Shown piece after piece: positions 37,113-52,707 of a stretch of DNA of 64,000 nt (position 1 is the first letter of the stretch; every line of letters starts with the position of its first letter). The DNA lies in assembly GCA_017540565.1 (NCBI GenBank), contig JAFYAU010000034.1, positions 40,335 to 104,334 of the forward strand, written 5' to 3'. The stretch is from Oscillospiraceae bacterium. GTDB taxonomy: Bacteria > Bacillota > Clostridia > Oscillospirales > Oscillospiraceae. The position numbers and the translations under genes were made by a program. The notes below the pieces were generated by a model that was not told the DNA's origin, made no database searches, and worked only from the letters and a program-made list of their open reading frames with translations.

Positions 37113-39080
37113 ATGTATACGTGCAGATATCCCCACCTGTTTGAACCCATCCGTCTGGGGCGCCAGCTGTTCCGGAACAGGCTTTTTGCCTCCCCCACCG
37201 GATTTCAGGATACGAATGAAAGCGGCTGGCTTCCCCCGGAGGCCGCGGCCTACTATGAGCGCAAAGCCATCGGCGGCGCCGCCAGCGTAGCCTCCTGCGA
37301 ATGCATCGTGGATTCGGAATACGGACTGGGAACGCCGCGCCATTTCCGGCTGGATGACCCCATGTCCCATTTCTCTCTTGCCCGGATCGCGCACGCCGTG
37401 TCCCGCCATGGAGCCGTCGCCAGCTGTGAGCTGCAGCACGCCGGCATGTTCGCCAACCGACAGCTGGCCATGTTCGGCGGCGGCAGCAATGGAAACGCCT
37501 ACGGTCCGGTGGAAACGGAACTCAACGGCCGTCTCGTTCTGCCCATGGATGAAGCGCTGATCGAGCGCACCATCGGCAAATACGCGGACGCTGCCGCAGC
37601 GGCAAAGGCGCTCGGCTTCGGCATGGTCACCGTGCACGCCGGCCACGGCTGGATGCTGCATCAGTTCCTCTCCCCTCTGACGAACACCCGCACGGACCGC
37701 TGGGGCGGCGCCTCCATCGAAAACAGAGCCCGCCTGCTGCTGTGCGTGCTGGAGGCCATACGCCGCAGAGTGGGCCCCGGTTTTCCCATTGAGGTCCGCA
37801 TCAGCGGCAGCGAGGCTTACGAGGGCGGCTACGGCATTGAAGAGGGGGTGGCGATCGCCCGTCAGCTGGACGGAAAGTGCGACCTGATCCACGTATCCGC
37901 CGGCAATCATGAGGTGGACGAGGTGTTCACCGTGACCCATCCTTCCATGTTCATGGAGGATGGCTGCAACGTGAAATACGCGGCGGAGATCCGAAAGCAC
38001 GTGCGCACGCCCGTGGCCGCGGTCGGCGCGCTGAGCGATCCGGCCCAGATGGAAGAGATCATCGCCTCGGGTCAGGCGGACGTGGTGGAAATGGCCCGTC
38101 AGCTGCTGGCTGATCCGGACACGCCCAACAAGCTGCGCACCGGCAGGGAAAACGAGGTCCGCCGCTGCATGCGCTGTCTGAGCTGCTTCTCCGCTGAACT
38201 GACGCACGGAGCGCCCTATTGTGCCATCAATCCGGAAACAGGACGCGAGCTGGAGATCAAATACGATTCCACGCCGGTCAGGACCCGGAAGCGCGTTCTG
38301 ATCGCCGGCGGCGGCATCGGCGGGATGCAGGCCGCTCTGACCTGCGCGGAGCGCGGACACGAAGTGATCCTCTGCGAAAGAGCCGGCCGTCTGGGAGGCG
38401 CCCTTCGCTGCGAAGAGAAGGTCCCCTTCAAGAAAAACCTCGATCGGTATCTCAACGCCCAGGAGCAGGCGGTGAAGGCCGCTCCCATCGATCTGCGGCT
38501 GAACACCGCCGTCACTCCGGAACTGGCGCGGGAGCTGGCGCCGGACGTGATCATCGCCGCCACCGGCGCACGCCCCGTAAAGCCTCCTATCCCGGGCGTC
38601 GATGGGGACAACGTCCTCAGCGCGGAATACGCTTACGTCCATCCGGAAGCGGTCGGAGAGCAGGTCGTGATCCTTGGGGCCGGGCTCGTAGGAGTCGAAC
38701 TGGGCATCTTCCTGGCCATGCAGGGGCGAAAGATCACGATCGTGGAGATGGCGCCGGAAATGAACGACGGTGGCAACTTCCTGCACGCCTCCGGCCTGCG
38801 GGTACAGATCCGGAAGTACGGCATCGGCATTCACTGCAATACCCGGGCCGAGCGGATCGCTCAGGACGGCGTCACCTGTTCCGCAGAGGGAAAAAGCGTT
38901 TTCTTCCCGGCGGATACGGTCGTATACGCCGTGGGTCAGCGCTCCATCGATGAGGATGCCCTGGCATTGAATCTCTGTGCGCCGGAGTTCTTCATGCTGG
39001 GCGACTGCGTGACCCCGAGGAACATCGTCAGCGCCACCGGCGCCGCTTATACCGTCGCGCGGGACATCGGCACAAGATGA
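37113..39080 (+). CDS. second NADH:flavin oxidoreductase of the same family (tandem paralog)
   Basis: HAGHGWMLHQFLSP..RTDRWGG, CMRCLSCF..C, and LIAGGGIGGMQAA. AAGGAGG RBS. Confidence 0.9.
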   Translation: MYTCRYPHLFEPIRLGRQLFRNRLFASPTGFQDTNESGWLPPEAAAYYERKAIGGAASVASCECIVDSEYGLGTPRHFRLDDPMSHFSLARIAHAVSRHGAVASCELQHAGMFANRQLAMFGGGSNGNAYGPVETELNGRLVLPMDEALIERTIGKYADAAAAAKALGFGMVTVHAGHGWMLHQFLSPLTNTRTDRWGGASIENRARLLLCVLEAIRRRVGPGFPIEVRISGSEAYEGGYGIEEGVAIARQLDGKCDLIHVSAGNHEVDEVFTVTHPSMFMEDGCNVKYAAEIRKHVRTPVAAVGALSDPAQMEEIIASGQADVVEMARQLLADPDTPNKLRTGRENEVRRCMRCLSCFSAELTHGAPYCAINPETGRELEIKYDSTPVRTRKRVLIAGGGIGGMQAALTCAERGHEVILCERAGRLGGALRCEEKVPFKKNLDRYLNAQEQAVKAAPIDLRLNTAVTPELARELAPDVIIAATGARPVKPPIPGVDGDNVLSAEYAYVHPEAVGEQVVILGAGLVGVELGIFLAMQGRKITIVEMAPEMNDGGNFLHASGLRVQIRKYGIGIHCNTRAERIAQDGVTCSAEGKSVFFPADTVVYAVGQRSIDEDALALNLCAPEFFMLGDCVTPRNIVSATGAAYTVARDIGTR

Positions 39081-39130
39081 GCAGTGCAGGCGGCGATCAG
39101 CATCAACCAAACGAATTTTGAGGTGATATC

Positions 39131-39511
39131 ATGGAAAAGAAAGTACTCAGCACATCCAGCGCCCCGGCTGCCATCGGCCCGTATTCCCAGGCCATTCAGG
39201 CCAACGGCTTCGTCTTCGTCTCCGGGCAGATCCCCATCGACCCGGCCACCGGTGCCTTTGCCGGGGACGACATCGTCAGCCAGACCCATCAGTGCCTGAA
39301 GAACGTCCGGGAGATCCTGCGTCAGGCGGGTGCGGACATGACGAACGTCGTCCGGGCAGACGTCTACCTGAAGCACATTTCGGACTTTGCCGCGATGAAC
39401 GAGGTGTACGCCCAGTATTTTGAGGGCGCCTGTCCCGCACGCGCCGCCGTACAGGTGGCCGCCATCCCCAGAGACGCTCTGGTGGAGATCGAGGTCATCG
39501 CGGCGCTGTAA
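39131..39511 (+). CDS. ridA: RidA/YjgF-family reactive enamine/imine deaminase
   Basis: APAAIGPYSQAI..GFVFVSGQIP..PARAAVQVAALP-type pattern in a 126-aa protein. Confidence 0.9.
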   Translation: MEKKVLSTSSAPAAIGPYSQAIQANGFVFVSGQIPIDPATGAFAGDDIVSQTHQCLKNVREILRQAGADMTNVVRADVYLKHISDFAAMNEVYAQYFEGACPARAAVQVAAIPRDALVEIEVIAAL

Positions 39512-39579: not shown

Positions 39580-40485
39580 TCAGAGGCTGATGTTGTGCTT
39601 TTTGCAGATGTATTTTATAAACTTCCGTATTAACTCCGTTTCATTTTCTTCCTTCCACGCCATGCATAGCTCATGGGTGGGCTTCCCGCCGTTTACGGGA
39701 AATACCCGCAGATTATGGAATCCGGAAGGGCGGATCTTTCCAACATAGGCGTACCCGTCGTTATGTTCCACACTGTACATCAGGGTTTCAAAATTTGGGA
39801 CGCTCTTTCTGTTATTGTTCTGGGCTCCGACGGATTTCAGATATGCCTCCACATTGGAATAATCCATGTTGGCAGACAGGGAATAAAACGTCTGCTTATC
39901 CAGCGCCGCCATATCGAGGGCGTCGTTCTTCACAGCCGGGTTATCCTTCCTTACGGCAATACATGAGCTCAGTTTCAAAATGGGAACAGATCTGATCTTA
40001 TTGGCGTTCCTCAGGATGAAGCTCTGCAGAAACACCACATCCACATTTCCAAGACTAATCATCCGATAAAGATTGCCCGCTTCATACAGATGCACGTCCA
40101 TGTAGATCTCAGGATGGATCTGATTGTATTCCGCAATTATATCCGTCAGATTGGAATATTCCTCGTTAACATTGATCGTTGAAGGCAGTCCGATCTTCAG
40201 AATGCTCCGGCTCCCTTCTTTTAGCTCCTTGATTTCTTCGACGGCGTCACAGATGCTGGCAAAGGGGACCTGGATCCGGTCGTAGAACAAGCGGCCCTCC
40301 GGAGTAAGCGAGATCCCTCTCGCCCTCCGGTTGAACAGCTTCACGTCCAATCCCTCCTCCAGGCGCTGGATCATTTTGCTCAGTGCCGCCTGAGAGACAT
40401 AGCTGTTCTCTGCCGCGGCCGTGATGTTGAGCGTTTCCGCGACTTCTATGAAAGCCGCTACCTGCTGGAAAGTGATGCTGTACAT
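39580..40485 (-). CDS. LysR-family transcriptional regulator
   Basis: N-terminal wHTH FQQVAAFIEVAETLNITAAAENSYVSQAALSKMIQRLEEGLDVKLFNR plus a LysR substrate-binding domain. The gene is markedly AT-rich: the 60 nt from 39601 contain 21 G+C. Confidence 0.9.
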   Translation of the reverse strand: MYSITFQQVAAFIEVAETLNITAAAENSYVSQAALSKMIQRLEEGLDVKLFNRRARGISLTPEGRLFYDRIQVPFASICDAVEEIKELKEGSRSILKIGLPSTINVNEEYSNLTDIIAEYNQIHPEIYMDVHLYEAGNLYRMISLGNVDVVFLQSFILRNANKIRSVPILKLSSCIAVRKDNPAVKNDALDMAALDKQTFYSLSANMDYSNVEAYLKSVGAQNNNRKSVPNFETLMYSVEHNDGYAYVGKIRPSGFHNLRVFPVNGGKPTHELCMAWKEENETELIRKFIKYICKKHNISL

Positions 40486-40508
40486 ATCTTACCTCCAGAG
40501 ATGATGAA

Positions 40509-40557
40509 GCAGGGCAGAATGCGGTCATCCTGCGGACGACGCTGCATTCTGCCCTGC
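40509..40557 (-). terminator. 14-bp hairpin between the distal DUF126 gene and lysR (terminator or attenuator)
   Basis: GCAGGGCAGAATGC (40509-40522) pairs with GCATTCTGCCCTGC (40544-40557). The minus-strand tail TTCATCAT is only weakly U-rich. Confidence 0.5.
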
Positions 40558-40580
40558 CTTCTGCCTGTTCGGCTTTCGGA

Positions 40581-40985
40581 TCAGTCTTTCTTCTCGATCT
40601 CGATATAACCGTCGTCTGCGTTTACGAAGATTATATCACCGGTCTCGATGTATTGTAAGGGGTCTTCTTCAAAATCCGTCATGGCGGGAACATGCCCCTG
40701 CGTCATGCACCCCACGGTAAGCGGGCTGCTTTTCGTATGCACGAACGCCGCCGGCTTTTTTCCGAACCCGTAGGCCAGAAAGCCGCCGGATCCCCGCGCG
40801 GAGTAGAAGCACAGCACCTTATCCGTATACGGGACTCGGTACAGAGGATGGTTTCGCTCTGTCGTATAGCCATTTTCGGCGGAAACGTTCGTGAATCCCT
40901 GCAGATACTTCGGCGCAACCAGCGCCTCCGCTTTCACCTTTCCGGGATACTCACAGCGGCCGTAGATTCTTTTTATGCTCATCAT
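40581..40985 (-). CDS. aconitase X swivel-domain protein (DUF126), distal copy
   Basis: RIYGRCEYPGKV..EALV...GGFL.YGFGKKPA.FVH...SPLTVGCMTQGHVPAMTDFEEDP. Most residues are identical by eye to the copy at 41079-41486. Confidence 0.85.
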   Translation of the reverse strand: MMSIKRIYGRCEYPGKVKAEALVAPKYLQGFTNVSAENGYTTERNHPLYRVPYTDKVLCFYSARGSGGFLAYGFGKKPAAFVHTKSSPLTVGCMTQGHVPAMTDFEEDPLQYIETGDIIFVNADDGYIEIEKKD

Positions 40986-41078
40986 TATCCCCCATTCTCA
41001 CGTTGCGGGAGCAACACGTCTGCGTCCGCCGGCAGACGATCCGGTGATCGCCTGCCGGCCGTAGGGCCGCAGATAACG

Positions 41079-41486
41079 TCACTTTTCCTTTTTCGTGATC
41101 TCGATGTACCCTTCGTCCGCGTTGATGAACACGGTATCTCCGGTCTCGATGTACTTCATCGGATCCTCTTCGAAATCCGTCATGGCGGGAACGTGGCCCT
41201 GCGTCATGCACCCCACAGTGAGCGGGCTGCTTTTCGTGTGCACGAAGCCCGCGGGCTTCTTGCCGAATCCGTACTGCAGAAAGCCGCCGGACCCGCGGGG
41301 AGAATAGAAGCAGAGGATCTTTCCGGTATAGGGAACTCTGTACAGCGGATGATTCCTCTCCGTGGTGTAGCCCTTGGCAGGGGCAACGTTCGTGAACCCC
41401 TGCAGATATTTCGGCGCTACCAGCGCTTCGCCTTCCACTTTGCCGGGGTACTCGCACCGGCCGTAGATCCTTTTCTTTTCTGCCAT
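41079..41486 (-). CDS. aconitase X swivel-domain protein (DUF126), proximal copy
   Basis: Same family as the distal copy. ATG 41486 has GGAGG 8 nt upstream and lies 5 nt after the DUF521 stop. The GTG 41501 track start was rejected. Confidence 0.85.
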   Translation of the reverse strand: MAEKKRIYGRCEYPGKVEGEALVAPKYLQGFTNVAPAKGYTTERNHPLYRVPYTGKILCFYSPRGSGGFLQYGFGKKPAGFVHTKSSPLTVGCMTQGHVPAMTDFEEDPMKYIETGDTVFINADEGYIEITKKEK

Positions 41487-41491
41487 TGCGC

Positions 41492-42820
41492 TTACCTCCA
41501 CTCGCCGTGCCAGGTGCCCGTCAGAGCGGCGTCGATGCAGTCATCCTGCGTGCCGTAGCAGACCTGCAGGAAGTCGCCCTCATCGGCGTAGCAGCCCGTG
41601 ATGTACTGGGCCTGCTTTGCCGTGTCGACGGCGATGCAGTCCACTCCCTCGGGCACAGCGCCCATGGCGGCCAGGCAGGCGCCGGACATCAGGGTAGCAC
41701 CAGCGGCCTTGAAGATGTCGACGTAGCCCAGATCTCTGGCGTGATTGTACAGCCAGGGAGCGGTCATGATCCAGAGGGGGATCTTGCACTTCTTGCCTTC
41801 CAGCTTCCGAGTCAGCAGCATCAGATCCACGATATTCAGATGCGGGCAGCCCAGATATACCATGTCGACCTTGTCGGTCTTGTGGTAGTTCAGACCCTCG
41901 TAGGTCTTCCGCAGGATGCTGTCGTCGATCATGACCTCACGGACGAAGGGCTTTCCGCCGGTGGCGAACTCGATGGTCGGGGCCTCCGGAGTAAAGCCGG
42001 GCATGTGGTACATGCTGACGGCGCCGCCGGTCTGGCAGGCGGAGTTGAACTTCTGGTACTGGGTGGTGGTCGGCCGGGTCGTTCCGGTCACGACGGGGAC
42101 TTCCACGTCGCAGGCCTCGCCGACGGCAAAGCCGTAAACGTCAAATTCCATGTCGGTGTGGATCAGGCGGTCGGTCTTGACCAGGATCGTGCCGTAACGA
42201 TTCTCGGTCACGCGCATGCCGTAGTGGGGCGCCTTGCCGAGGATGGCCGTGGCAAGGGAGCCGTCGATGTTCGTCCGGGCGCCGAGGGTGGCGTTGCAGT
42301 ACGGCATCTGGCTGCTTTCGAACCAGGCGCACTGGGCGCCCACGCTGGGCAGATAGGACATCGTCAGGTAGTTGGCACAGGAGTGGGTGGTGATCATGCC
42401 CATCTTCTTCAGAAGATCCATCTCTTCCTTATGCAGCGCTTTTTCATGGAACGCGGGATCGTCGTGACGCAGCGCCGGGTTCCGGTAGGAGCAGATGTTG
42501 CACTGTTCCCAGCCGTGGATGGGGGCTTCTTCATAGAAGGGGCTCTTGTTGGCGAAGGTGGGCACCTTGAAACGGCCGCCCTGGGCGACGAATTCCGCCA
42601 ATTCGTCATACGTGAAGCCGATGTACTGGTTCAGGTTGAATCCAGGCGTATGCATGTCGCACGTTCCGTCCAGGTCCACCAGCTTGTCCGCGCCGGAGAT
42701 GCGGCACAGCTCCACCAGATACTGCATGCATTTCTGCTTGACCGTTCCCTCTTCTCCCTGAAGGATCCGCTTCTCTTCATCAGTCAGAGCAGGCATCGGC
42801 CATTTTGTCGCTTGTTCCAT
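41492..42820 (-). CDS. aconitase X catalytic-domain protein (DUF521), large subunit
   Basis: A 442-aa Cys-rich protein with a DUF521-like pattern (ILQGEEGTVKQKCMQYLV..., THSCANY, CAWFESSQ). It is immediately followed by DUF126 genes, as in two-subunit AcnX. Confidence 0.85.
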   Translation of the reverse strand: MEQATKWPMPALTDEEKRILQGEEGTVKQKCMQYLVELCRISGADKLVDLDGTCDMHTPGFNLNQYIGFTYDELAEFVAQGGRFKVPTFANKSPFYEEAPIHGWEQCNICSYRNPALRHDDPAFHEKALHKEEMDLLKKMGMITTHSCANYLTMSYLPSVGAQCAWFESSQMPYCNATLGARTNIDGSLATAILGKAPHYGMRVTENRYGTILVKTDRLIHTDMEFDVYGFAVGEACDVEVPVVTGTTRPTTTQYQKFNSACQTGGAVSMYHMPGFTPEAPTIEFATGGKPFVREVMIDDSILRKTYEGLNYHKTDKVDMVYLGCPHLNIVDLMLLTRKLEGKKCKIPLWIMTAPWLYNHARDLGYVDIFKAAGATLMSGACLAAMGAVPEGVDCIAVDTAKQAQYITGCYADEGDFLQVCYGTQDDCIDAALTGTWHGEWR

Positions 42821-42917
42821 TGATTATAACCTCCTAATTATTGATCCGCGTCCGTCGGCCCGATGCCCGCGGAAAAGCGGAACGGTCCGTTTTTCCCGCG
42901 GGCGGGCCCTGCAATTG

Positions 42918-43946
42918 TCATTTTGCCATGGCGGCGGCAATATTGGCCGCTTCTCTCTTCTTCACTCCGAAGTAGTCGATGATCAGAGATACGATGAGCA
43001 GTACGCCCTGCAGGATGATGACGTAGTATTCGGACACGTGCAGGATGTTGAGCATGTTCTCGAAGATGTTGATCAGAAATACCGCGATCAGTGGGCCGAT
43101 CAGTTCGCCCGTCCCGCCGAAGAAGGACACGCCGCCCAGCACCGCAGCGGACGTTGCCGTCATGTTGGGTGCGGAGGAGATGATGGACGTCGGACTGGCC
43201 ATCTTGGTCTGGCAGCTCCAGAATACGCCGCCGAACACGGCAAGGGTCGAGTTGACGCAGAACAGGATCGTTCTCATCTTCATGGGGTTCAGGCCGCACA
43301 GACGCGCCGCGGCGGGGTTGCTGCCGGACATGTACAGGCTCCGGCCGAATTTCGTCTTGAACAGAATGTATTCGACGATAATGAGGATAACGATGGCGAT
43401 GATGAACATCAGCGGGACCGGGCCAAATGTCTTCTGTCCAAAGGCAACTATGGCCTCGTCGCTGATCTGAACGTTGTCTCCCTTGGAAACAACATTGCAG
43501 AGTCCTGTATATACGGACGAGATGCCGATGGTCGCGATAAACGCCGGCAGCTTCACCTCATTGACGAGGAAGGTGTTGATCAGGCCGAACACCAGGGCTA
43601 CGGCAAGGGTGATCAGAATGGTGCTCCACCAGCTGGACCACGTCTGCTTCAGAACAATCGCAAAGATCAGGGATCCGAGCGTGGCCTGGGAGGAGATGGA
43701 CATGTCGAAGTTGCCGCTGATCAGGATGCAGGACAGGCCGACCATCATCATGATCTGGATGACCAGGTTATAGAAGTTTGTGACCCAGTTTGTCCGTGAC
43801 ATGAATCCCTTGGTGAACATGGCACTGACAGGTGCGCCTTTCAGAACGCCGCTGGAATACACCATGGTGAAGATCATCATCACAATGAGGATGATCAGCA
43901 GCGGGAATGCCTTCTGCCTGACCATCTGCTTAAGAAATCTACGCAT
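42918..43946 (-). CDS. sugar-type ABC transporter permease (RbsC/BPD_transp_2 family)
   Basis: Multi-TM protein with the family-typical GG.DLS/GNFDMS block and a C-terminal basic tail. Confidence 0.9.
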   Translation of the reverse strand: MRRFLKQMVRQKAFPLLIILIVMMIFTMVYSSGVLKGAPVSAMFTKGFMSRTNWVTNFYNLVIQIMMMVGLSCILISGNFDMSISSQATLGSLIFAIVLKQTWSSWWSTILITLAVALVFGLINTFLVNEVKLPAFIATIGISSVYTGLCNVVSKGDNVQISDEAIVAFGQKTFGPVPLMFIIAIVILIIVEYILFKTKFGRSLYMSGSNPAAARLCGLNPMKMRTILFCVNSTLAVFGGVFWSCQTKMASPTSIISSAPNMTATSAAVLGGVSFFGGTGELIGPLIAVFLINIFENMLNILHVSEYYVIILQGVLLIVSLIIDYFGVKKREAANIAAAMAK

Positions 43947-44958
43947 TCTTTCCGGCCTCCTTTACTTCTTTTCTCCTCTTCCTCGCCAGCTTGGTGGATG
44001 CGAACCTCAGCTTGAGGAAATCGATGGAAAGCGCGCCGAGCAGCAGGATGCCGGAGAAGGTCGTGACCCAGTAGGGGTTGACGCCGACGACGCTCATTCC
44101 GATCTGGAAGGTGTTCAGGATAAGAAGACCGATCAGCGCGCCGCCCATTCCTCCGATGCCGCCGCCGAAGCTGATGCCGCCGATCATGGCGGCCGTCAGG
44201 CCGGTGAACTGGTTGGTGGAAAGTGCCGTCAGACCGGCCATTCCCAGACGCGCTCCCTGGAACAGGCCGCTGATACCGGCCAGGATGGAACCGTTTACAA
44301 ACAGTGTGATGACGACCTTGGTGGCGTTGATGCCCGCTAGCCGGGCCGCCTGCGGGTTGCCGCCCACCAGCAGCATCTTCATGCCGAAGCGGGTCTTGGA
44401 GATCATGATGCCGTAAATGACAAAGAACAGGATCAGGATGTAGGCTCCGATGGGGATGCCAAACAGGTTGGTCTTTCCGAACCACTGGATAAAGGCGTCC
44501 TTGAAGTTGACGTTGGTCGCAACGCCGTTGTTCCACCACTGGCTGTACACATAGGTCAGCCCCTTGACGATGAAGCTCACGCCCATGGTCGCGATGAACG
44601 ACGGGAATTTCATGACGGAGACCAGCCAGCCGTCCAGAAGGCCGAACAGACCGCAGATGACGATCATCATGAGAAGTGCGATCGGCCCGGGAATGGCCTT
44701 CGCGCAGGCGTTGCCGATAACCGTAAGGCCCAGGCAGCCTATCGTCGACATGGCGATATCCATGTTGCCCGAGATCAGCAGACAGCCGGCGCCGATGGTC
44801 AGAAATCCGGTTACGATGATCGCCTGCAGAACGTTCTTAATGGTCGAAGTGGCAAAAAAGTTCTTGCCAAGCTGAGAGGACCAGAAAGAAAAGACTGCGA
44901 TCAGAACGATCAGTATCAGGATCAGTGTAAAGTTCTTGCTTTTCAGTATCTTTTTCAT
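43939..44958 (-). CDS. sugar-type ABC transporter permease (second subunit)
   Basis: Paralogous multi-TM protein that overlaps the next permease gene by 8 nt. Confidence 0.9.
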   Translation of the reverse strand: MKKILKSKNFTLILILIVLIAVFSFWSSQLGKNFFATSTIKNVLQAIIVTGFLTIGAGCLLISGNMDIAMSTIGCLGLTVIGNACAKAIPGPIALLMMIVICGLFGLLDGWLVSVMKFPSFIATMGVSFIVKGLTYVYSQWWNNGVATNVNFKDAFIQWFGKTNLFGIPIGAYILILFFVIYGIMISKTRFGMKMLLVGGNPQAARLAGINATKVVITLFVNGSILAGISGLFQGARLGMAGLTALSTNQFTGLTAAMIGGISFGGGIGGMGGALIGLLILNTFQIGMSVVGVNPYWVTTFSGILLLGALSIDFLKLRFASTKLARKRRKEVKEAGKNA

Positions 44959-44970
44959 CTTACTATCCTC

Positions 44971-46464
44971 TTAATCCAGCATGGCGGCGGCGAGGACGTT
45001 TTCTTCCGTCGCGTCTTCGCGCGCAAACTCACCGGTGATGTGCCCGTTATGCATGACGAGAACACGGTCGGCCAGGTTGATCACTTCCGTCAGTTCGCTG
45101 GAGATCAGGATGATCGAGATCCCCCGGCAGGCCAGCTCGCAGATAAGCTTGTATATCTCCGCCTTGGTGCCTACGTCGATGCCCTTCGTAGGCTCATCGA
45201 GGATCAGGATCTTGGTGTCTACGACCTTGTTGATCCACCTTCCAAGAATTACCTTCTGCTGGTTGCCGCCGGACAGCTCGCCGACCACCTTCTCCACCGT
45301 CGGAGTCTTGATGTCAAAATCTTCGACCGCTTCCTCTGCCAGATTGCGGACCTGTTTCTTATCCAGGAAGATCCAGTGGCTCAGCTTGTGGATCGACGGC
45401 ATCGCCACGTTCTCCCGGATCGTCCGGCGCATGATCAGGCCCTGCTCTTTTCTGTCCTCCGGACAGAGCATGATGCCGTGGTCAATGGCGTCCCTTGTGG
45501 ATTTGAACGAGACTTTTTTCCCTTCCAGGTAGATCTCGCCTTCCAGAATGGCGTCCGCGCCGAAGATCGCACGGACCGTCTCCGTCCGACCGGCTCCGAC
45601 CAGACCGGACAGTCCCAGGATCTCGCCTTTTCTCAGCGTGAAGCTGACGTCGTGGACGGCAAGGGTCTTCAGATTCTTCACTTCCAGCAGAACGTCCCCG
45701 ATGTTGGTGTTCCTCACCAGGTTGCTGTAGGTGTCGCCAATATCCCTTCCGACCATGGCCTTGATGAGCATGGCCTCGTTGCACTCGGAGGTCTTCATCT
45801 GCGTAACGAAGCCGCCGTCCTTCAAAACGACGATGTCGTCGGCGACCTGGAAGATCTCGTTCATGCGGTGGGATACGTAAAGGACGACCTTTCCCTCTTC
45901 CTTCAGCAGTTTGATCAGACCGAACAGGATCTTGATCTCCACTTCGGTCAGAGGGGCCGTCGGCTCGTCAAAGGCAATGATATCCGTATTCCGGCGATAC
46001 GCCTTCATGATCTCGACCATCTGCTGATGGGCGACGTTCAGATGACCGACTTTCTCATAGGGATCGATGTCCAGGCCGAACTTGTCCAGCAGTTCCTTCG
46101 TATCCTTGATGATCTGACGGCTGTCGTAACCCCCGAGCTTGTTCGAGGGAAGATCGCCGCAGAAGATATTTTCCGCGACGGACAGAGAAGCAAACAACTG
46201 CCTCTCCTGGTAGATGACGCTGACCCCGCCACGGATCGCGTCTACGGGGCTCTGAAAATGAACTTCTTCCCCGTTGATCAGGATCTGCCCGATATCCGGC
46301 TGGATATCGGCACTCAGGATCTTCAGAAGCGTGGACTTGCCGGCGCCGTTTTCTCCCATCAGGGCCATGACGCGGCCGCCTTCCGCCTTGAAGTTGATCC
46401 CGTACAGCGCTCTGACTCCAGGGTAGTTCTTTTCAATATCCCGGAACTCCAGCGATTTTTGCAT
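44971..46464 (-). CDS. sugar ABC transporter ATP-binding protein (duplicated ATPase, RbsA/MglA-like)
   Basis: Walker A GENGAGKST, signature LSGGNQQK, and two NBD halves in 497 aa. Confidence 0.95.
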   Translation of the reverse strand: MQKSLEFRDIEKNYPGVRALYGINFKAEGGRVMALMGENGAGKSTLLKILSADIQPDIGQILINGEEVHFQSPVDAIRGGVSVIYQERQLFASLSVAENIFCGDLPSNKLGGYDSRQIIKDTKELLDKFGLDIDPYEKVGHLNVAHQQMVEIMKAYRRNTDIIAFDEPTAPLTEVEIKILFGLIKLLKEEGKVVLYVSHRMNEIFQVADDIVVLKDGGFVTQMKTSECNEAMLIKAMVGRDIGDTYSNLVRNTNIGDVLLEVKNLKTLAVHDVSFTLRKGEILGLSGLVGAGRTETVRAIFGADAILEGEIYLEGKKVSFKSTRDAIDHGIMLCPEDRKEQGLIMRRTIRENVAMPSIHKLSHWIFLDKKQVRNLAEEAVEDFDIKTPTVEKVVGELSGGNQQKVILGRWINKVVDTKILILDEPTKGIDVGTKAEIYKLICELACRGISIILISSELTEVINLADRVLVMHNGHITGEFAREDATEENVLAAAMLD

Positions 46465-46520
46465 GTTTTTCTTTCACCAACCCATCATTCAGCGTTTTCA
46501 GACATCTATCGCCATACGTT

Positions 46521-46560
46521 TAAAAATGTCAGATAGGCGTCACCGACACCTATCTGACAT
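46521..46560 (-). terminator. intercistronic hairpin plus T-run between the binding-protein and ATPase genes (attenuator or partial terminator)
   Basis: A 12-bp stem ATGTCAGATAGG (46526-46537) / CCTATCTGACAT (46549-46560), followed on the minus strand by TTTTTA. Confidence 0.6.
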
Positions 46561-46638
46561 TTTGGGCTTAATAGATGTTTAGTTGACCGTTCTTATTTCT
46601 GAATTTTGAAAAACACAGATTATGAAGACCGGAAAAGC

Positions 46639-48006
46639 TTAGGAATCAAGCCACCCGTCGGGAACGTCGGGATACGGATCATACATGTCGAGGGTAACTT
46701 CCGCGTCGTAGTTGTAGTAGTTGCCACCGCTGTACAGATCGACCCACTCCAGGAACTGGAAGTAGTCGTTCTGACCGATCCAGATGGCGGGGATATACAG
46801 CGTGGACAGGGTCCGTCCCTCTCCGCCGTGATCGTTCTTCTTCACCCAGCTAGGCCAGATCTCATCCTCAGTGCAGAAGCCTCTCTTGAAGGCGTACATG
46901 GCGCCCATCATCGGCTCTACGCTCATGAAGTAAGAGGTGAAGTAGGCAAAGCGGAAGGAGTCGTACTGACCCGCGTCACACTGGGTCTGCAGACCGGCGC
47001 CGCCGATGGCGATGCAGCAGGAGGTATCGGTCAGGCCGGCAGTGCTGATGACACTGGCAGCGCCCTGAGCGGGATCGTCGACCAGGCCGAATACCAGCCA
47101 GTACTTGATGTTGTCGTTGGTGGAGATGACGGGGCTCGCGCCGTCGATGCCGGCCTGAACGCCGAGGCCATAGGATACCAGGTCAACGGGGAAGACGTTC
47201 TCTTCGCCCATGAGCTCGAGGACCTTGTCATAGCAGCCCTGATACCGCTCGACCAGCTGGGGAGAGGTGGAGTAGTTCATCAGAATGATGCCGACTTCGG
47301 ATCTGGCGGCATCGGGATAGGTCTCGTTGAGCCAGTCGTACAGCTTCTGGCCGCACAGAACGCCGGCGCCGTAGTAATCCTTACCGGCAAAGTTCTTGAG
47401 CAGCTGACCGCCGTTGGGAACGCCGTCACCGGTGGTGCCGTCACGGGGAATGCCCATGTTGCCCATCCACTGCACTTCAGGATAGTCAGCCAGCAGACCT
47501 GCAACCGCGGGGTAGATGGTGGTGTCAGGGTCAAGGAGCAGAATGTCTACGCCCTGGTCAAGAAGCACCTGGACCTGAGTCATGAACATGTCGTTGTCAT
47601 TTTCAGCGCTGGAGAAGCCGAGCCACTGCATGTTGAAGCGCGGAGCCCAGGTCTCGACGGCCGCGGCCGTCTGCTGATACAGAACGGTGGCGGACTGCGC
47701 GACGTAGGCGATCTTGTAGGAAGGACCGGAAGCATAGTCAAAGTCCAGATCGTAGTAACCGATCATGTCCAGATTCCGGGAACCATCCTCGTTCATGTGG
47801 GGCGTGGCGACCGTCTCAGCGCCCTCGTCAGCCGGGGTCTCGTCAGCGGGCGTCTCCGCATCGTCCTGCTTGCCTTCATCCGGCGTTGCCGGCGTGGTGT
47901 CCTGCTTGCCGCTGTCATCTTTGGGGGTCTCGGAAGAGCCTCCGCCGCAGGCGACCAGACAGGATACCATGCACAGAGCCAGAATAAGTGCCAGTACCTT
48001 CTTCAT
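46639..48006 (-). CDS. ABC transporter substrate-binding lipoprotein (type I periplasmic-binding fold) with an acidic Thr/Pro/Asp linker
   Basis: Signal peptide plus lipobox LVACGG. A ~60-aa low-complexity linker is followed by a sugar-binding-protein-like body. Confidence 0.85.
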   Translation of the reverse strand: MKKVLALILALCMVSCLVACGGGSSETPKDDSGKQDTTPATPDEGKQDDAETPADETPADEGAETVATPHMNEDGSRNLDMIGYYDLDFDYASGPSYKIAYVAQSATVLYQQTAAAVETWAPRFNMQWLGFSSAENDNDMFMTQVQVLLDQGVDILLLDPDTTIYPAVAGLLADYPEVQWMGNMGIPRDGTTGDGVPNGGQLLKNFAGKDYYGAGVLCGQKLYDWLNETYPDAARSEVGIILMNYSTSPQLVERYQGCYDKVLELMGEENVFPVDLVSYGLGVQAGIDGASPVISTNDNIKYWLVFGLVDDPAQGAASVISTAGLTDTSCCIAIGGAGLQTQCDAGQYDSFRFAYFTSYFMSVEPMMGAMYAFKRGFCTEDEIWPSWVKKNDHGGEGRTLSTLYIPAIWIGQNDYFQFLEWVDLYSGGNYYNYDAEVTLDMYDPYPDVPDGWLDS

Positions 48007-48056
48007 TGTTTAATTCCTCCTAATTTTATTATTTACGAATAACCGCTGGATCACGA

Positions 48057-49088
48057 TTATTGATAAACCTTAAACTTGTAATCCTCATACGCCCGCATGA
48101 CGACCGCGTTCTTGCGTCTGGCGATCTCTCTGCCTCGGTCACTGTTCTCCGGCATGAAGCCTCCGCAGAACGCGTAACCGCCGCCGGGGGCAAGCGTAAG
48201 GATCGAATTTTTCACCGATTCGTAGATCAGCTCGTCCGGGGCGTCGTCTGCCAGAAGTTCACCCTTGGCGTCCCAGCCTCCGGCAATGACCAGATCGTTT
48301 CCGTATTTCTTCTTTACCGCGACCAGATCGTTGATCGTCTGGGCCGGATCCCAGAGTCGGATCCCGACGTGCTCCATCAGCTCGTCGATCAGCTTTTCCG
48401 CCTTGCCGCAGTTGTGGAAGGAGACGGGGATTCCTCTGTCCTGCGCGAATTTCGCGTGTCTCTGGTACAGGGGGACGAACAGCTCCGTGAATACGGAGGG
48501 CGAAATGAACGGCGCGTTCAGCGACGCCGTGTCATCCTTCAGGGATATCACGTCCGGCTGATAGTAGTCGATGACCTTTTCGGTGATCTCGCAGTACCAG
48601 TCGCAGAGGTAGGAGCACAGGGCGAACACCTCTTCGGGTTCCTCATAGATCGCGCAAAGGCCTTCCTCGAACCCCATGAAGGACATCAGGTGCTGGAAAT
48701 ACCCGAAGTGCATGTCCAGCGACAGCAGCGTTTCATCGCGGTTGTAGTTGCTGTGTTCGATGCTGTCCTTGACGATGCGTTCCCAGTCGTAGCCGGAGAT
48801 GTCCGGCGCCTTGATCACGTCCCGCCATTTTGTGATGTCGTCAAGGATGAAATAGGTCGTATCCGGCATCGTGGCGCCGTTTACTTCCTTGGAATAGGTG
48901 TATCGGACGCCCCAGGGATCGATCCCTCCCACGCCGACGGCTCTGTGCTTCTGCAGAAACTCCGGAGAAAGCAGCTGGATCGGCGGAGGCGGAGCCCCCT
49001 TCTGCGGCGGCATGATGGTGTACTGCGGGACCCATTCCGGGCACTCCCCGTTCAGCAGCCGCCTGAAATTTTCTTTTCCGTTGATCAT
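48057..49088 (-). CDS. UroD/MtaA/CmuA-family methyltransferase-like protein (paralog of 4856-5875)
   Basis: Shares long blocks with the first copy: DITKWRDVIKAP, HFGYFQHLMSFMGFEEGL, YEEPEEV, DDTAS, FHNCG, WDPAQ. Confidence 0.85.
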   Translation of the reverse strand: MINGKENFRRLLNGECPEWVPQYTIMPPQKGAPPPPIQLLSPEFLQKHRAVGVGGIDPWGVRYTYSKEVNGATMPDTTYFILDDITKWRDVIKAPDISGYDWERIVKDSIEHSNYNRDETLLSLDMHFGYFQHLMSFMGFEEGLCAIYEEPEEVFALCSYLCDWYCEITEKVIDYYQPDVISLKDDTASLNAPFISPSVFTELFVPLYQRHAKFAQDRGIPVSFHNCGKAEKLIDELMEHVGIRLWDPAQTINDLVAVKKKYGNDLVIAGGWDAKGELLADDAPDELIYESVKNSILTLAPGGGYAFCGGFMPENSDRGREIARRKNAVVMRAYEDYKFKVYQ

Positions 49089-49142
49089 GGAATACCTCGC
49101 CTTACGTCATTTACAGATATTGCCGCACCCGGTCGGCAGGAT

Positions 49143-50366
49143 TCAGATGTGGAGCTTTACGTTTGCTTTTTCCAGAACGCTCTGAAGTTCCTTTACATCC
49201 AGTTTGCTGAAATCGTCCGTCATCACGGCGGCCGTGCCGGCCGCCTGTCCGGTGACTGCGCACGGTGGGATCACACGGGTAACATCCCACAGGGAATCCG
49301 TTACGGAAATGTTTCTGCCGGCACAGATCAGATTGGGCACCTTGGAGGAATACAGCGTCCGGAAGGGCAGTTCAAAACACGGTCCCGGCTTCCTCCAGTC
49401 TCCCGTAAGGCCGATGCTGTCCTCAAATCCCTTGCGGTTTTCCGATTCGTCCATCGTATATTCGCCCGCGATTCGCCGGCTCATCCGCACCAGCGGGATC
49501 GTGGATACGGTAACAGGCGCGTAATCCGCCTGCTTTTCCCTGTTTGCAAGAATGTCATCGAACATCTTCGCGTGCGCTTCCTGCACGGCTCTGGAGAGCT
49601 CCGCGCCGTCCACTCCGGAAAACCGGGTCTGGGTCAGTGAAGTGACGGTGACATTCCCGTAGGGGTTGTCTCCGCGTTTTTCCGCCGCCGGCGTTTGGGA
49701 CGGCGGGACATCAGCCAGTCCGAACATCTTCAGCTTTACTTTGCCTTCCGTATAATAGTAGTACCAGCTTGCGATGCCGTTGCCCCCTTCGTGCAGGGCG
49801 GTCTCCGCCCCGGCCTGAAAAGCGACATCGGCGTCACCCGTGCAGTCCACTACGGTCTTGCAGGTGATAACGCTGCGGCCGGATTTGTTTTCGATGACGA
49901 CTCCCGCGATGGAATTGCCGTCTTTCACAACGGAGGTGATCAGGGTGCCGTACAGGACCGTGACTCCAAGCTCCTTCAGCGTCTTCTCCATGTCCAGCGC
50001 GAAAATATGCGGGTTGAACTGCGTGATAAAACGCATCTTTTTCCGTTCTTCTGCGGACCCATTCTCAAGCCAGGCCTTGGGGTAAGGTCCTTCGCAGCCG
50101 TGCCGGATGGACAGTCTGAACAGTTCTTCTCCGATCCCATGGATGACCTGATTGCCCAGTCCGTCGTCCAGCGGCAGATAAATGGCGATCAGCCCCAGCG
50201 TAGCCAGTCCGCCCAACAGAAACTCTCTCTCGATGAGCGTGACCTTCGCTCCGTTCCGTGCGGCTGCCATGGCTGCCGCTACTCCTGCGATCCCTCCTCC
50301 GGCTACCAGAACCTCAGTCTCTTCCGTCACTGTCAGTTCTCTTGCCGGTTCTACAAACTTGTTCAT
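49143..50366 (-). CDS. FAD-dependent oxidoreductase (FAD_oxidored-type)
   Basis: Dinucleotide-binding motif VLVAGGGIAGVAAAMAAARNGAKVTLIE. ATG 50366 is preceded by AGGAAG. The longer track start would include the predicted promoter. Confidence 0.85.
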   Translation of the reverse strand: MNKFVEPARELTVTEETEVLVAGGGIAGVAAAMAAARNGAKVTLIEREFLLGGLATLGLIAIYLPLDDGLGNQVIHGIGEELFRLSIRHGCEGPYPKAWLENGSAEERKKMRFITQFNPHIFALDMEKTLKELGVTVLYGTLITSVVKDGNSIAGVVIENKSGRSVITCKTVVDCTGDADVAFQAGAETALHEGGNGIASWYYYYTEGKVKLKMFGLADVPPSQTPAAEKRGDNPYGNVTVTSLTQTRFSGVDGAELSRAVQEAHAKMFDDILANREKQADYAPVTVSTIPLVRMSRRIAGEYTMDESENRKGFEDSIGLTGDWRKPGPCFELPFRTLYSSKVPNLICAGRNISVTDSLWDVTRVIPPCAVTGQAAGTAAVMTDDFSKLDVKELQSVLEKANVKLHI

Positions 50367-50462
50367 TTTACTCTTCCTTACGTCACATGGATTTTCGGCT
50401 GACGTTCCCCACCGAAGGAAGGAACCCCCCGATTCCAATGATCTTCTGCCATTGTTGTTAAT

Positions 50463-50492
50463 AATATACAATTTCACACCCTGTTTCTGCAA
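50463..50492 (-). promoter_or_regulatory. candidate promoter of the FAD-oxidoreductase-to-DUF126 operon
   Basis: Minus strand reads TTGCAG (50492-50487), 18 nt spacer, TATATT (50468-50463). Confidence 0.4.
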
Positions 50493-50603
50493 TCCCGCTT
50501 GTACACCATTTTAGTACCAGCCATAACCAACAGGTTATCGTTTTTCGTCGTTTGCTCCTGCGGTACTGGTCATTATCACCAAGGCCGGGGCTTTCCGGCC
50601 GGA

Positions 50604-50642
50604 CAGAAAAAGACCGGGAACGGCAAATGCCGTTCCCGGTCT
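50604..50642 (-). terminator. intrinsic terminator after jag
   Basis: A 14-bp stem AGACCGGGAACGGC/GCCGTTCCCGGTCT with a 4-nt loop. The minus strand continues with TTTTTC. Confidence 0.85.
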
Positions 50643-50657: not shown

Positions 50658-51323
50658 TTATTTCCACTCGCGGTAGGTGGGTTTCGGCGCAGGCGCCGAG
50701 GTGCGGTCATAGGCCACAACCACACGGCGGTTGGGCTCCGTTCCCGTAGAGAACGTCGTTACTCCGTCATACTCCTGCAGGGCGGTGTGGATCACGTGGC
50801 GCTCATAGCTGTTCATGGCCTCCAACGTGATGTTTCGGCGGTACTTCAGCACCTTCTCCGCAGTCTTGCGGGCCAGTTTCTCCAGTGCCTCGTTCCGGCG
50901 CTCCCGGTAATTCTCGGCGTCGATGCTGATGCGGACCCGGCCTCCTCCGCGGTTCACGGAATAGTTGGCCAGATGCTGGATTGCATCCAGCGTCTCTCCC
51001 CGGCGGCCGATCAGGGCCCCAGGATTCTCCCCGACAATCGTCACGCTGATCGTATTCGCGTCCTCGGTAATCTCCGTGTCGGCTTCCACGCCCATATGCT
51101 CGAACAGGCCCTTCAGGAACCGTTCGGTCATCTCGGCCTTGCTCTCTTCGAACTCGTACGTGAGGCGGACCTTCGCTTCCACGGCGCCGATGCCCAGGAA
51201 TCCGCTCTTGGCGCGTTCCAGGATCTCGACGGTGACATCGTCCCGCTCCAGGCCAAGTTCCTCCAGACCCTTGCGGATGGCCTCATCCTCGGTCTTGGCG
51301 GCCACTTCTATATACTTAGTCAT
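50658..51323 (-). CDS. jag: Jag/KhpB RNA-binding protein (Jag_N, KH, R3H)
   Basis: N-terminal Jag domain (AKTEDEAIRKGLEELG), a KH block (IGRRGETLDAIQHL) and an R3H-type C-terminus (ERHVIHTAL). Located after yidC. Confidence 0.9.
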   Translation of the reverse strand: MTKYIEVAAKTEDEAIRKGLEELGLERDDVTVEILERAKSGFLGIGAVEAKVRLTYEFEESKAEMTERFLKGLFEHMGVEADTEITEDANTISVTIVGENPGALIGRRGETLDAIQHLANYSVNRGGGRVRISIDAENYRERRNEALEKLARKTAEKVLKYRRNITLEAMNSYERHVIHTALQEYDGVTTFSTGTEPNRRVVVAYDRTSAPAPKPTYREWK

Positions 51324-52689
51324 CAGACTCGGTCTCCTCTTCCTCCGGCTCTTCTTCCGGCTCTTCTTCCGGCTCTTCCTCCGGCTCTTCCTCCTCGGCA
51401 GGCTCTTCGTCGAACGCCGTCTCTTCCTTCTCCGGCTCCGGCAGCACGGCAGCCGTCTCCCCGGGGATCTCAGGTTCGGGAAGCACTTCCTCCTCCGGTT
51501 CTGCGCCGTCCTCTTCCTCCGCCTTTACGGCATAGCGGTCGGGATCATAGGCGCGCCCGCGGGCGTACTTCCTGTCGTCCACGCGTCCGGCAGATTCATC
51601 GTCTGCCTTCAGGCCTTTCTTGCGCTCCCACTCGGCAGTCTTCTCTCTCCTGTCCTCGCGGTCGCTGATGCGCTGTTTTTTCTTGGATGTGTTGGCGTTG
51701 CGCTCCGTAGCGTTCTCCGCCTTCAGGCGCTCGGTCTCCTGGCGCTTGGCCTCCAGTTCCTTTTCCTTCTGTGCTCTGAGGGCCATACGTTCGGCATCCT
51801 CGATGGCGATCTTCTTGCCGTAATACTTGTTCAGTATGATCTCCTGGATCATGGCAAACACGCTGCTGGCGATCCAGTACAGGCCGAGGGCGGCCGGCAT
51901 GAGGAAAGCGAACCACAGGGTCATGATGGGCATGAAGATATTCATCATGCTCATGGTCTTCTTCGTGGGATCCTCCTCAGCGTCGGGGTTCTTGGGCATC
52001 GTCTTCTGACTGAGCCAGGTCTGCAGCCAGGTCAGGATTGCTGCCACCACGGGGATGATGACCAGCAGAGCGATAGCCTTGGTGGCGCTGTCGCTCCAGT
52101 TGGTATCGCCGCTGAAGAACATCTTGATGTTGGGCGTCTTGCCCAGGTCAAGGCCAAGGAAACTGTAATCGATCTGTCGCAGCTTGTCCGAAAGGCCGGA
52201 GAAAGCGCTCCAGTTCTTCGTGATGAACTGACTTTGTTCGATCTGTACGTAGGCCGCGTTCGCCGTAGACTCAAATCCGAGTTCGGCGAGCTTCGTGGCG
52301 ATGGCTCCGCCCTCGTCCAGCAGTTCCTTGCCCACCCCCATCATAATGGTAAGAGGGTAGCGGATGGCCTGATACAGAGCAATCAGGATGGGGAACGGGA
52401 TCAGGGACCAGATGCAGCCGGACATAGGGTTCACGCCCTCTTCCCGGTACAGCTTCTGGACCTCTTCGTTGTATTTCTGTTTGTTGGCGCCGTGCCGTTT
52501 CTCGATCTCCTTGATCCTCCCCTGCAGGCGGGTCTGCTGGATCATGCCTTTCTTGGACTTCATCTGGAAGGGCAGCAGGATCAGTTTGACGATCAGAGCG
52601 AAAAGGATGACGGCAACGCCGTAGTTTCCGACAAACTCATACAGCCAGAGCATGAGCATGCCGAACGGTTTCGCAATTGCAGACAGCAT
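51316..52689 (-). CDS. yidC: membrane protein insertase YidC/SpoIIIJ with a long charged C-terminal tail
   Basis: 60-kDa-IMP core (LPFQMKSKKGM...GCIWSLIPFPILIALY). The tail is Lys/Glu rich and ends in (EEPE)n. AAGGAG RBS. Confidence 0.9.
   Translation of the reverse strand: MLSAIAKPFGMLMLWLYEFVGNYGVAVILFALIVKLILLPFQMKSKKGMIQQTRLQGRIKEIEKRHGANKQKYNEEVQKLYREEGVNPMSGCIWSLIPFPILIALYQAIRYPLTIMMGVGKELLDEGGAIATKLAELGFESTANAAYVQIEQSQFITKNWSAFSGLSDKLRQIDYSFLGLDLGKTPNIKMFFSGDTNWSDSATKAIALLVIIPVVAAILTWLQTWLSQKTMPKNPDAEEDPTKKTMSMMNIFMPIMTLWFAFLMPAALGLYWIASSVFAMIQEIILNKYYGKKIAIEDAERMALRAQKEKELEAKRQETERLKAENATERNANTSKKKQRISDREDRREKTAEWERKKGLKADDESAGRVDDRKYARGRAYDPDRYAVKAEEEDGAEPEEEVLPEPEIPGETAAVLPEPEKEETAFDEEPAEEEEPEEEPEEEPEEEPEEEETESDD
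51347..51394 (-). repeat. four tandem copies of a 12-bp unit (GGCTCTTCYTCC on the plus strand) inside the yidC 3' end
   Basis: Units at 51347, 51359, 51371 and 51383 encode the EEPEEEPEEEPE stretch. Partial copies flank them. Confidence 0.85.
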
Positions 52690-52707
52690 GTATCTTTCTC
52701 CTTACGT

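Follow-up and report, generated by a model that had tools for sequence, protein, structure and literature searches.

An aconitase X locus with a methyltransferase-I-like protein, a PF12831 flavoenzyme and exchangeable uptake genes in a rumen Oscillospiraceae bacterium, possibly serving the catabolism of methoxylated plant acids

Here, we analysed a stretch of 64,000 nucleotides (the window) of an uncultured Oscillospiraceae bacterium from the rumen (assembly GCA_017540565.1, contig JAFYAU010000034.1, positions 40,335-104,334), in which ten head-to-tail open reading frames (ORFs) on the minus strand, running from 50366 to 39580, bring together a two-subunit aconitase X (AcnX), a UroD-superfamily protein, a PF12831 flavoenzyme, an ABC importer with a lipoprotein solute-binding protein (SBP) and a LysR-type regulator (Table 1). 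An original prediction made from the letters of the DNA had listed these ten genes in this order, and the ORFs together with Pfam and NCBIfam assignments recovered all of them in the same order and in the families named. The superfamilies are familiar, the arrangement is a previously undescribed, widespread and modular catabolic one, with chemistry resembling that of AcnX dehydratases and an entry resembling O-demethylase systems. Our tentative interpretation, to which we give somewhat less than an even chance, is a two-module catabolic locus for a methoxylated plant acid, in which uptake and O-demethylation, both specific to the substrate, supply a shared core of AcnX and flavoenzyme. Literature searches with combinations of AcnX, DUF521/DUF126, PF12831 and O-demethylation returned no published description or pathway for the cluster, in line with the earlier view of an undescribed system.

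The large subunit of the aconitase X (AcnX-L) lies far above the PF04412 gathering score (290.5 versus 31.5 bits), and both small subunits pass the PF01989 cut-off of 27 (27.1 and 29.0 bits) and match 7CNR_B and AF0055. The closest solved structure to AcnX-L is the Thermococcus enzyme 7CNR (152.7 bits, 34% identity over 357 positions), while the Agrobacterium cis-3-hydroxyproline dehydratase structures score 79-83 bits. As landmarks we used the residues named as cluster, common-substrate and substrate-specific ligands of AcnX by Watanabe et al. 2021 (PMC8184944). Cys148, Cys325 and Cys382 align with the cluster ligands Cys110, Cys283 and Cys342 of the T. kodakarensis enzyme (TkAcnX), and Glu168-Ser169-Ser170, Lys402 and Tyr406 correspond to Glu129, Ser130, Ser131, Lys361 and Tyr365, which bind the carboxylate and the β-hydroxyl. 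The cluster cysteines and common-substrate residues of AcnX-L are invariant across 22 clade members, and the catalytic serine, aligned with Ser62 of TkAcnX-S, is kept in both small subunits (PRGSGG and ARGSGG). Judged by these residues, the protein is a genuine heterodimeric type II AcnX, which would be expected to hydrate or dehydrate a carboxylate with an α-hydrogen and a β-hydroxyl, and the three-cysteine pattern is expected to hold a cluster of the [4Fe-4S] rather than the [2Fe-2S] type. The two small subunits are 84% identical to each other; the likely start of copy 1 is ATG 41486, since its homologues have 134-135 aa, while its longest ORF begins at GTG 41501. Their tandem duplication (40581-41486), with a GC-rich hairpin in between, is confined to the lineage of the window (window, L009, L077 and L078), and most related loci carry one copy.

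Two activities of AcnX are known, and the bacterial two-subunit types IIc-IIf have no assigned function (PMC8184944). With the mevalonate-5-phosphate dehydratase of T. kodakarensis (TK1248/TK1249, 7CNR, type IIb), the enzyme of the window shares separate subunits and all of the Cys, Glu-Ser-Ser, Lys, Tyr and Ser residues, but the phosphate-binding stretch GVS..N of TkAcnX reads GFN..Q here and Thr63-Val64 of its small subunit is Gly-Gly. In detail, the phosphate residues Gly48-Val49-Ser50, Asn53 and Asn79 correspond to Gly60-Phe61-Asn62, Gln65 and Asn114; the consensus of the clade shows no conservation at positions 62 and 114. The host is bacterial, too, and no UbiD-type decarboxylase, UbiX or other mevalonate-pathway neighbour was found in the window or in the recurrent clusters of 72 related loci. 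The cis-3-hydroxyproline dehydratase has the same superfamily fold and the same carboxylate/β-hydroxyl chemistry, but its set of ring-nitrogen and pyrrolidine residues (Asp203, Ile206, Trp35, Thr72) is not reproduced: Asp203 is Pro59, Ile206 is Asn62 and the Leu27/Trp35 position is occupied by Phe. The match to the corresponding equivalog NF051439 reaches 151.4 bits, compared to a cut-off of 700, and there are no hydroxyproline genes near the AcnX of the window. The earlier suggestion that this AcnX falls outside both characterised activities is supported, and the protein belongs to neither characterised clade. In a search of 1.84 billion 50%-identity cluster representatives, the nearest full-length proteins outside the clade were 46% and 43% identical, with no other listed match above 39%. 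Of the 150 representatives listed, about 95 reach or exceed 152.7 bits, the level of the Tk enzyme. By sequence, the AcnX of the window matches the category 'type IIc-IIf, function unknown': like these types it is bacterial and two-subunit and lacks the landmark residues of either known activity. The description of types IIc-IIf in PMC8184944 does not mention a methyltransferase-I-like protein and a PF12831 flavoenzyme as conserved partners.

The surroundings of this AcnX recur, as the original prediction had proposed to check. Screening one genome per GTDB species, we found 64 loci that encode the clade. Identities of AcnX-L between loci range from 59 to 99%, but those of the adjacent UroD-like proteins to the copy of the window only from 20 to 71%. 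Carriers are almost all Oscillospiraceae/Clostridiales metagenome-assembled genomes (MAGs) from the rumen or other parts of the ruminant gut, the termite gut, digesters and the chicken and mouse gut, and several of them carry two or three loci of the clade. Among the carriers, only Sporobacter termitidis DSM 10068 is in culture; it has at least three loci and is reported to grow only on a limited range of methoxylated aromatics, via O-demethylation and ring cleavage (PMC4585845, PMC8359953). Neighbour ORFs were clustered over 72 related loci, and frequencies were counted in the 22 non-redundant complete loci, i.e. those flanked by 7 kb or more on either side. An AcnX small subunit is present in all of these (100%), the PF12831 flavoenzyme in 20 of 22 (91%) and the UroD-like protein in 77%; LysR and a zinc alcohol dehydrogenase (Zn-ADH) follow with 59% each, a short-chain dehydrogenase/reductase (SDR) with 50%, the binding protein with 41%, ABC components with 32-36%, a 300-aa Fe-S protein and a metallo-β-lactamase (MBL)-fold hydrolase with 27% each, and a TRAP transporter (DctP+DctM) and an enoate-reductase-like flavoenzyme with 14% each. 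As the gene set persists while the order differs from locus to locus, functional coupling is strongly indicated. Besides Zn-ADH, SDR and the enoate-reductase-like flavoenzyme, the accessory genes of related loci encode aldehyde:ferredoxin oxidoreductase and B12 proteins resembling reductive dehalogenases (RDH) or QueG, and this repertoire fits aromatic/enoate chemistry. NCBIfam matches of the accessory Zn-ADH, SDR, MBL, TRAP and glycyl radical enzyme (GRE) proteins all remained below curated cut-offs and gave no specific names.

The Fe-S protein of about 300 aa belongs to a family without Pfam assignment and adjoins UroD-like or PF12831 genes in about one quarter of the loci (L005, L009, L011, L066, L073, L075 and others). 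Its family profile matches PceA (E = 7e-15) and QueG (E = 3e-13), members of the reductive dehalogenase/epoxyqueuosine reductase superfamily, and the protein is probably a small B12/2x[4Fe-4S] enzyme. We rejected it as part of the locus of the window, from which it is absent.

The UroD/MtaA fold originally proposed for the UroD-like protein holds: its AF2 model (pLDDT 93.8) retrieved MtaA (4AY8/4AY7) as top Foldseek match, followed by UROD (TM 0.61-0.66). The protein is, however, better placed in the MtaA/O-demethylase methyltransferase-I branch than left as a decarboxylase-type protein of unspecified role. The Pfam URO-D match covers residues 138-305 only, i.e. the C-terminal half, the top-scoring NCBIfam model, MtaA, stays far short of the required score (MtaA and MtbA matches are weak), and neither a full-length URO-D match nor a HemE model was among the hits. 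In a phmmer search against the PDB the single sequence had no relative, and the family profile matched only MtaA 4AY7, a methylcobalamin:CoM methyltransferase. The motif FHNCG, with invariant H225-N-C227, aligns with the His/Cys zinc ligands of MtaA in LHICG. Homologues with 50-76% identity carry the depositor name 'veratrol--corrinoid protein methyltransferase', an annotation that we take to denote methyltransferase I of the Acetobacterium O-demethylase; the only direct link to characterised methyltransferase I (MT I) enzymes consists of these depositor names. The UroD superfamily includes O-, S- and halogen-demethylating corrinoid methyltransferases (PMC10418091, PMC13222342). A second UroD/MtaA-like gene of the window (4856-5938, minus strand), 46% identical to the copy in the locus, lies in a minus-strand cluster (4175-8361) that shows no gene for a corrinoid-binding protein; its other members encode a RACo corrinoid activase (6817-8361), a DUF2284 metal-binding protein (6194-6793) and a CobW-type GTPase (4175-4774). 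Because of the MtaA profile and fold, the HxC zinc ligands, the depositor names, the superfamily and the RACo-linked paralogue, we read the gene of the locus as coding for a methyltransferase-I-like enzyme rather than a decarboxylase.

With the corrinoid O-demethylase systems, such as OdmABD/VdmB of Acetobacterium dehalogenans, MtvABC and MtoABCD, the locus has in common a UroD-superfamily methyltransferase-I-like protein with many divergent paralogues per genome, a RACo activase in the window and carriers that dwell on lignocellulose. Classical O-demethylase systems cluster MT I, corrinoid protein and methyltransferase II (PMC13222342, PMC8359953), whereas the methyltransferase of the window stands without those partners, beside AcnX, flavoenzyme and importer.

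Comparison with close relatives revealed that the locus is a mosaic. In the sheep-omasum MAG RGIG6004 (L009), the AcnX is 98.6% identical to that of the window, and DNA identity amounts to 94-100% from 31485 to ~39400 and again across AcnX-L. Homology ends at 42844, just upstream of AcnX-L, and the upstream cassette of L009 has a different order and content, namely a second flavoenzyme, ATPase, permeases, a 416-aa SBP, two Fe-S proteins, a UroD-like protein and the FAD-dependent oxidoreductase (FADox). Protein identities between the two strains are 26% for the SBP, 30-43% for the permeases, 62% for the ATPase, 66% for the UroD-like protein and 69% for FADox. The LysR gene in turn is 84-93% identical at the DNA level in its DNA-binding part and 60-76% in its effector-binding part (39600-40200), compared to 98-100% in the flanks. 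Importer, methyltransferase and LysR sensor have thus been exchanged jointly while AcnX stayed the same, as would be expected if substrate choice lay with the front end and AcnX acted further down on an intermediate shared by the routes. A 32-kb scaffold from another metagenome (L077) reproduces all ten genes in unchanged order and encodes an AcnX-L 95% identical to that of the window, and a further contig (L074) repeats the series FADox-UroD-SBP-ATPase; the gene arrangement is therefore not an assembly artefact. A chimeric assembly behind the breakpoint at 42844 was likewise rejected, as the identical junction is found in L077.

The PF12831 flavoenzyme is highly conserved, with 60-97% identity among its best 120 homologues. 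Its AF2 model (pLDDT 79.9) matched generic two-domain flavoproteins only (geranylgeranyl-reductase-like proteins, halogenases, FixC and fumarate reductases), with TM values of at most 0.48.

Which molecule might such a locus serve? The original prediction, a catabolic route for an imported small molecule with AcnX as dehydratase or isomerase, is partly supported; its emphasis on sugars and sugar acids is doubtful. Gene content, conserved catalytic residues, recurrence and the modular mosaic are shown by the sequences, while the kind of substrate, the succession of reactions and the part played by each protein are inferred as follows. A variable front end, consisting of SBP and CUT2-type importer, the OdmB/MtaA-like methyltransferase and the LysR effector domain, would import one methoxylated carboxylic acid of plant origin, probably derived from lignin or phenylpropanoids. 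The methyltransferase would demethylate this acid, with a shared corrinoid protein encoded elsewhere in the genome as putative methyl acceptor, which RACo, present in one copy in the window, would reactivate. A conserved back end of two-subunit [4Fe-4S] AcnX and PF12831 flavoenzyme would then act on the common demethylated product, presumably a β-hydroxy or α,β-unsaturated carboxylate. In AcnX, the small-subunit serine would abstract the α-proton, and the α,β bond would gain or lose water, the carboxylate being free rather than bound to CoA; for the flavoenzyme, we propose that it might catalyse an adjacent redox step, either reduction or oxidation of the C=C bond or oxidation of the β-hydroxyl. 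The aromatic or phenylpropanoid nature of the substrate is suggested by the methyltransferase family, the lignocellulose habitats and the physiology of S. termitidis. A bolder version, which we regard as rather unlikely when taken as a whole, would make this a third AcnX activity: a hydratase/dehydratase that needs no CoA and whose substrates are free acids from lignin methoxy-aromatics, either α,β-unsaturated or β-hydroxylated. It would be the PF12831-partnered core of many paralogous loci, whose swappable front ends would allow Oscillospiraceae of animal and termite guts to channel various methoxylated plant acids into a single anaerobic route.

Several points weigh against a methoxylated plant acid as substrate. 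A scan for the DxHxxG...SxL...GG motif, which is a weak test, detected no corrinoid-binding protein, and no methyltransferase II, within 10 kb of any of 73 loci, and a RACo gene is close to a single group of loci. The third zinc ligand of MtaA is lost, APGCG being APGGG here (Cys to Gly); some MT I enzymes are without zinc (PMC13222342). The flavoenzyme is without an informative structural relative in Foldseek, and the family of the importer is best known for monosaccharides. The physiology of S. termitidis is circumstantial evidence, and the organism of the window is an uncultured rumen bacterium. The proposal as a whole is drawn from sequence and structural models.

The importer leads to the first alternative, catabolism of an O-methylated or plain sugar acid or cyclitol, e.g. 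4-O-methyl-glucuronate from xylan. Here, CUT2 uptake would be followed by demethylation by the UroD-like protein, AcnX would be an Fe-S sugar-acid dehydratase acting on an α-proton and a β-hydroxyl, and the flavoenzyme would provide the redox step. The transporter does resemble CUT2 importers (AraFGH, RbsABC) in its fused double ATPase, two BPD_transp_2 permeases and a lipoprotein of the type-I periplasmic-binding fold, and its ATPase and permeases are closest to AraG/AraH and RbsA/RbsC. The only structural relatives of the SBP detected by sequence are sugar-binding proteins, with a weak match to the L-arabinose-binding protein 4KZK (E = 0.0025). All matches of the transporter, however, fall short of the sugar-specific equivalog cut-offs: the ATPase reaches 591 bits with AraG (cut-off 689) and 517 bits with RbsA, also below its cut-off, and the permeases reach 123-146 bits with AraH (cut-off 378). 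The binding protein differs from those of AraFGH/RbsABC in its 455 aa; it contains a low-complexity linker of ~70 aa and scores 25.8 bits with Peripla_BP_4 (cut-off 35.1). Some loci encode a TRAP transporter in place of the ABC importer. This transporter family points to a carboxylate substrate, which would fit acid sugars as well. The xylan-rich habitats and the Zn-ADH, SDR and MBL-fold hydrolase partners, which resemble oxidative sugar routes, are also compatible with a sugar acid. Against it, the neighbour clusters of related loci contain no recurring sugar kinase, aldolase, isomerase or glycoside hydrolase, and we know of no corrinoid-dependent demethylase for an aliphatic sugar methyl ether. 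S. termitidis, moreover, has several of these loci and is nevertheless reported to grow only on a limited range of methoxylated aromatics (PMC4585845). Taken together, the absence of recurring sugar enzymes, the TRAP transporters and the diet of the cultured carrier make the earlier emphasis on sugars and sugar acids doubtful, and we consider this alternative unlikely.

A second alternative turns on the UroD-like protein. In a dehydration-decarboxylation route akin to the archaeal mevalonate pathway, AcnX would dehydrate a β-hydroxy acid, the UroD-fold protein would be a cofactor-free decarboxylase that takes the carboxyl group off the unsaturated product, and the flavoenzyme would adjust the redox state. 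A decarboxylase does follow AcnX in archaea (PMC8184944), the fold also matches UROD (TM 0.64-0.66), and both the missing third zinc ligand and the lack of corrinoid partner genes in the motif scan of the loci would be easily understood. Against a decarboxylase, on the other hand, stand a URO-D match restricted to the C-terminal half and without a HemE model among the NCBIfam hits, the invariant H225-x-C227 aligned with zinc ligands of MtaA, and a paralogue beside the corrinoid activase RACo. The extreme divergence of these proteins between loci (20-71% identity) would also be less expected of a shared later step than of an entry enzyme tuned to its substrate. We regard such a route as quite improbable. 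Mere adjacency, i.e. an ABC cassette recombined between an AcnX unit and a flavoenzyme/methyltransferase unit with unrelated functions, would account for the cassette breakpoint exactly upstream of AcnX-L, for hairpins in four intergenic gaps (one of them terminator-like) and for a transporter in only about one third to one half of related loci, but is very unlikely given that FADox (91%) and the UroD-like protein (77%) stay beside AcnX despite shuffled order in dozens of genomes, that transporter, methyltransferase and LysR effector domain change jointly between strains, and that the same ten-gene order was assembled independently in L077. The remaining probability we reserve for an explanation beyond the methoxylated-acid locus and these three alternatives.

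The locus provides one AcnX clade without assigned function with conserved partners, a habitat and a cultured carrier, S. termitidis DSM 10068, and its function is thus directly testable. If the substrates were indeed methoxylated aromatics, the locus would expose enzymes of the anaerobic fermentative breakdown of lignin-derived methoxylated acids in the rumen and termite gut, shed light on the poorly known steps after O-demethylation and give the large PF12831 flavoenzyme subfamily a first role. With importer, methyltransferase and the effector domain of the regulator exchanged between strains and AcnX kept constant, the locus is also a clean natural case of modular pathway evolution.

Table 1 Features of the AcnX locus in window coordinates; promoters, operator and RNA structures are predictions.
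Feature	Position	Strand	Evidence or remark
Intrinsic terminator of upstream jag gene	50604..50640	-	Stem accgggaacggca / tgccgttcccggt, then ctttttct; read from sequence
Palindrome ATAACCTGTTGGTTAT, candidate LysR-type operator (putative)	50523..50538	-	~35-45 nt upstream of the -35-like hexamer
Promoter-like element TTGCAG-18 nt-TATATT	50463..50492	-	Read from sequence; predicted
FAD-dependent oxidoreductase (FADox)	49143..50366	-	PF12831 FAD_oxidored, 207 bits; 407 aa
MtaA/UroD-fold protein, O-demethylase methyltransferase-I type (putative)	48057..49088	-	URO-D PF01208, 42.9 bits; 343 aa
Lipoprotein solute-binding protein (SBP)	46639..48006	-	455 aa; lipobox LVAC; sub-threshold Peripla_BP_4
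Hairpin downstream of SBP gene	46523..46563	-	19-bp perfect stem ending UUUUU; terminator- or attenuator-like
Fused double ABC ATPase, CUT2 type	44971..46464	-	Two ABC_tran stretches; AraG/RbsA-like
Permease 1	43939..44958	-	BPD_transp_2
Permease 2	42918..43946	-	BPD_transp_2
Gap with GC-rich hairpin (42857-42908)	42821..42917	-	z = -2.18; colinearity breakpoint versus L009
Aconitase X large subunit (AcnX-L), type II	41492..42820	-	PF04412, 290.5 bits; 442 aa
AcnX small subunit copy 1	41079..41486	-	PF01989, 27.1 bits
AcnX small subunit copy 2	40581..40985	-	PF01989, 29.0 bits; tandem duplicate of copy 1
Promoter-like site upstream of LysR, within small-subunit-2 gene	40659-40630	-	Consensus scan
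Strong hairpin between small subunit 2 and LysR	40507..40559	-	-47.4 kcal/mol, z = -6.02
LysR-type regulator	39580..40485	-	HTH_1 + LysR_substrate (Pfam)

The transcriptional organisation of the locus turned out to be less simple than first thought. The flavoenzyme, and with it the locus, had been taken to start at 50492; this position is the first base of TTGCAG-18-TATATT, where TTG is part of a -35-like hexamer and not a start codon. The start was revised to ATG 50366 behind the ribosome-binding site AAGGAAGAG, in agreement with homologues of 400-414 aa. The promoter-like element scores below the threshold of a consensus promoter scan, as is usual for activator-dependent promoters. All gaps had been described as tiny or overlapping, which applies to five junctions (overlaps up to 54 nt), while four are longer. 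The SBP gene is followed by 174 nt, AcnX-L is preceded by 97 nt, the small subunits are 93 nt apart and LysR is preceded by 95 nt; all four gaps fold into stable hairpins (z = -6.2, -2.2, -3.5 and -6.0, respectively). In the gap after the SBP gene, a 149-nt region reaches -48.4 kcal/mol (z = -6.15), and its hairpin ends in a U-run; a hairpin after the binding-protein gene is in the usual position of an attenuator in ABC operons. The promoter-like site upstream of LysR, CTTACA-18-TATAAT, has 10 of 12 consensus matches and a TG extension, and LysR is probably a separate unit with its own promoter. Co-transcription of most genes, part of the earlier idea of one operon, is plausible, whereas the hairpins in the gaps and a probable promoter of its own for LysR leave a single ten-gene transcript unproven.

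The locus is bounded by the terminator after jag (50640-50604) on its 5' side and by a hairpin after LysR (39561-39531) on its 3' side. Upstream, rnpA, yidC and jag lie on the same strand (50658-53257), a block that is normally origin-proximal. In L077, a two-component system precedes the same ten genes instead of rnpA-yidC-jag, so that the chromosomal position of the locus differs between close relatives.

Convergent to the locus, on the plus strand at 32567-39511, lie genes for a GRE, which belongs to the PFL2-3 subfamily and reaches none of the equivalog cut-offs, then for two BaiCD/enoate-reductase-like Fe-S flavoenzymes, paralogues with 45% mutual identity, and for RidA. This GRE-flavoenzyme-RidA block is 98-100% conserved in L009 and L077 and is not conserved beside AcnX elsewhere. 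A functional link to these right-flank genes was rejected, as RidA and a close GRE co-occur only in L009; enoate-reductase-like genes occur in five other loci (3/22 complete loci). At the edge of the window (1-1927) there is a partial second GRE, cut by the window end, with a radical-SAM activase at 989-1927. On the other side of the locus, at 53754-57195 on the plus strand, genes encode an aldo/keto reductase that ends in a 4Fe-4S dicluster domain, a class-III-like zinc alcohol dehydrogenase and a CDF cation-efflux transporter; this alcohol dehydrogenase shares 34% identity with the Zn-ADH of the AcnX locus L010.

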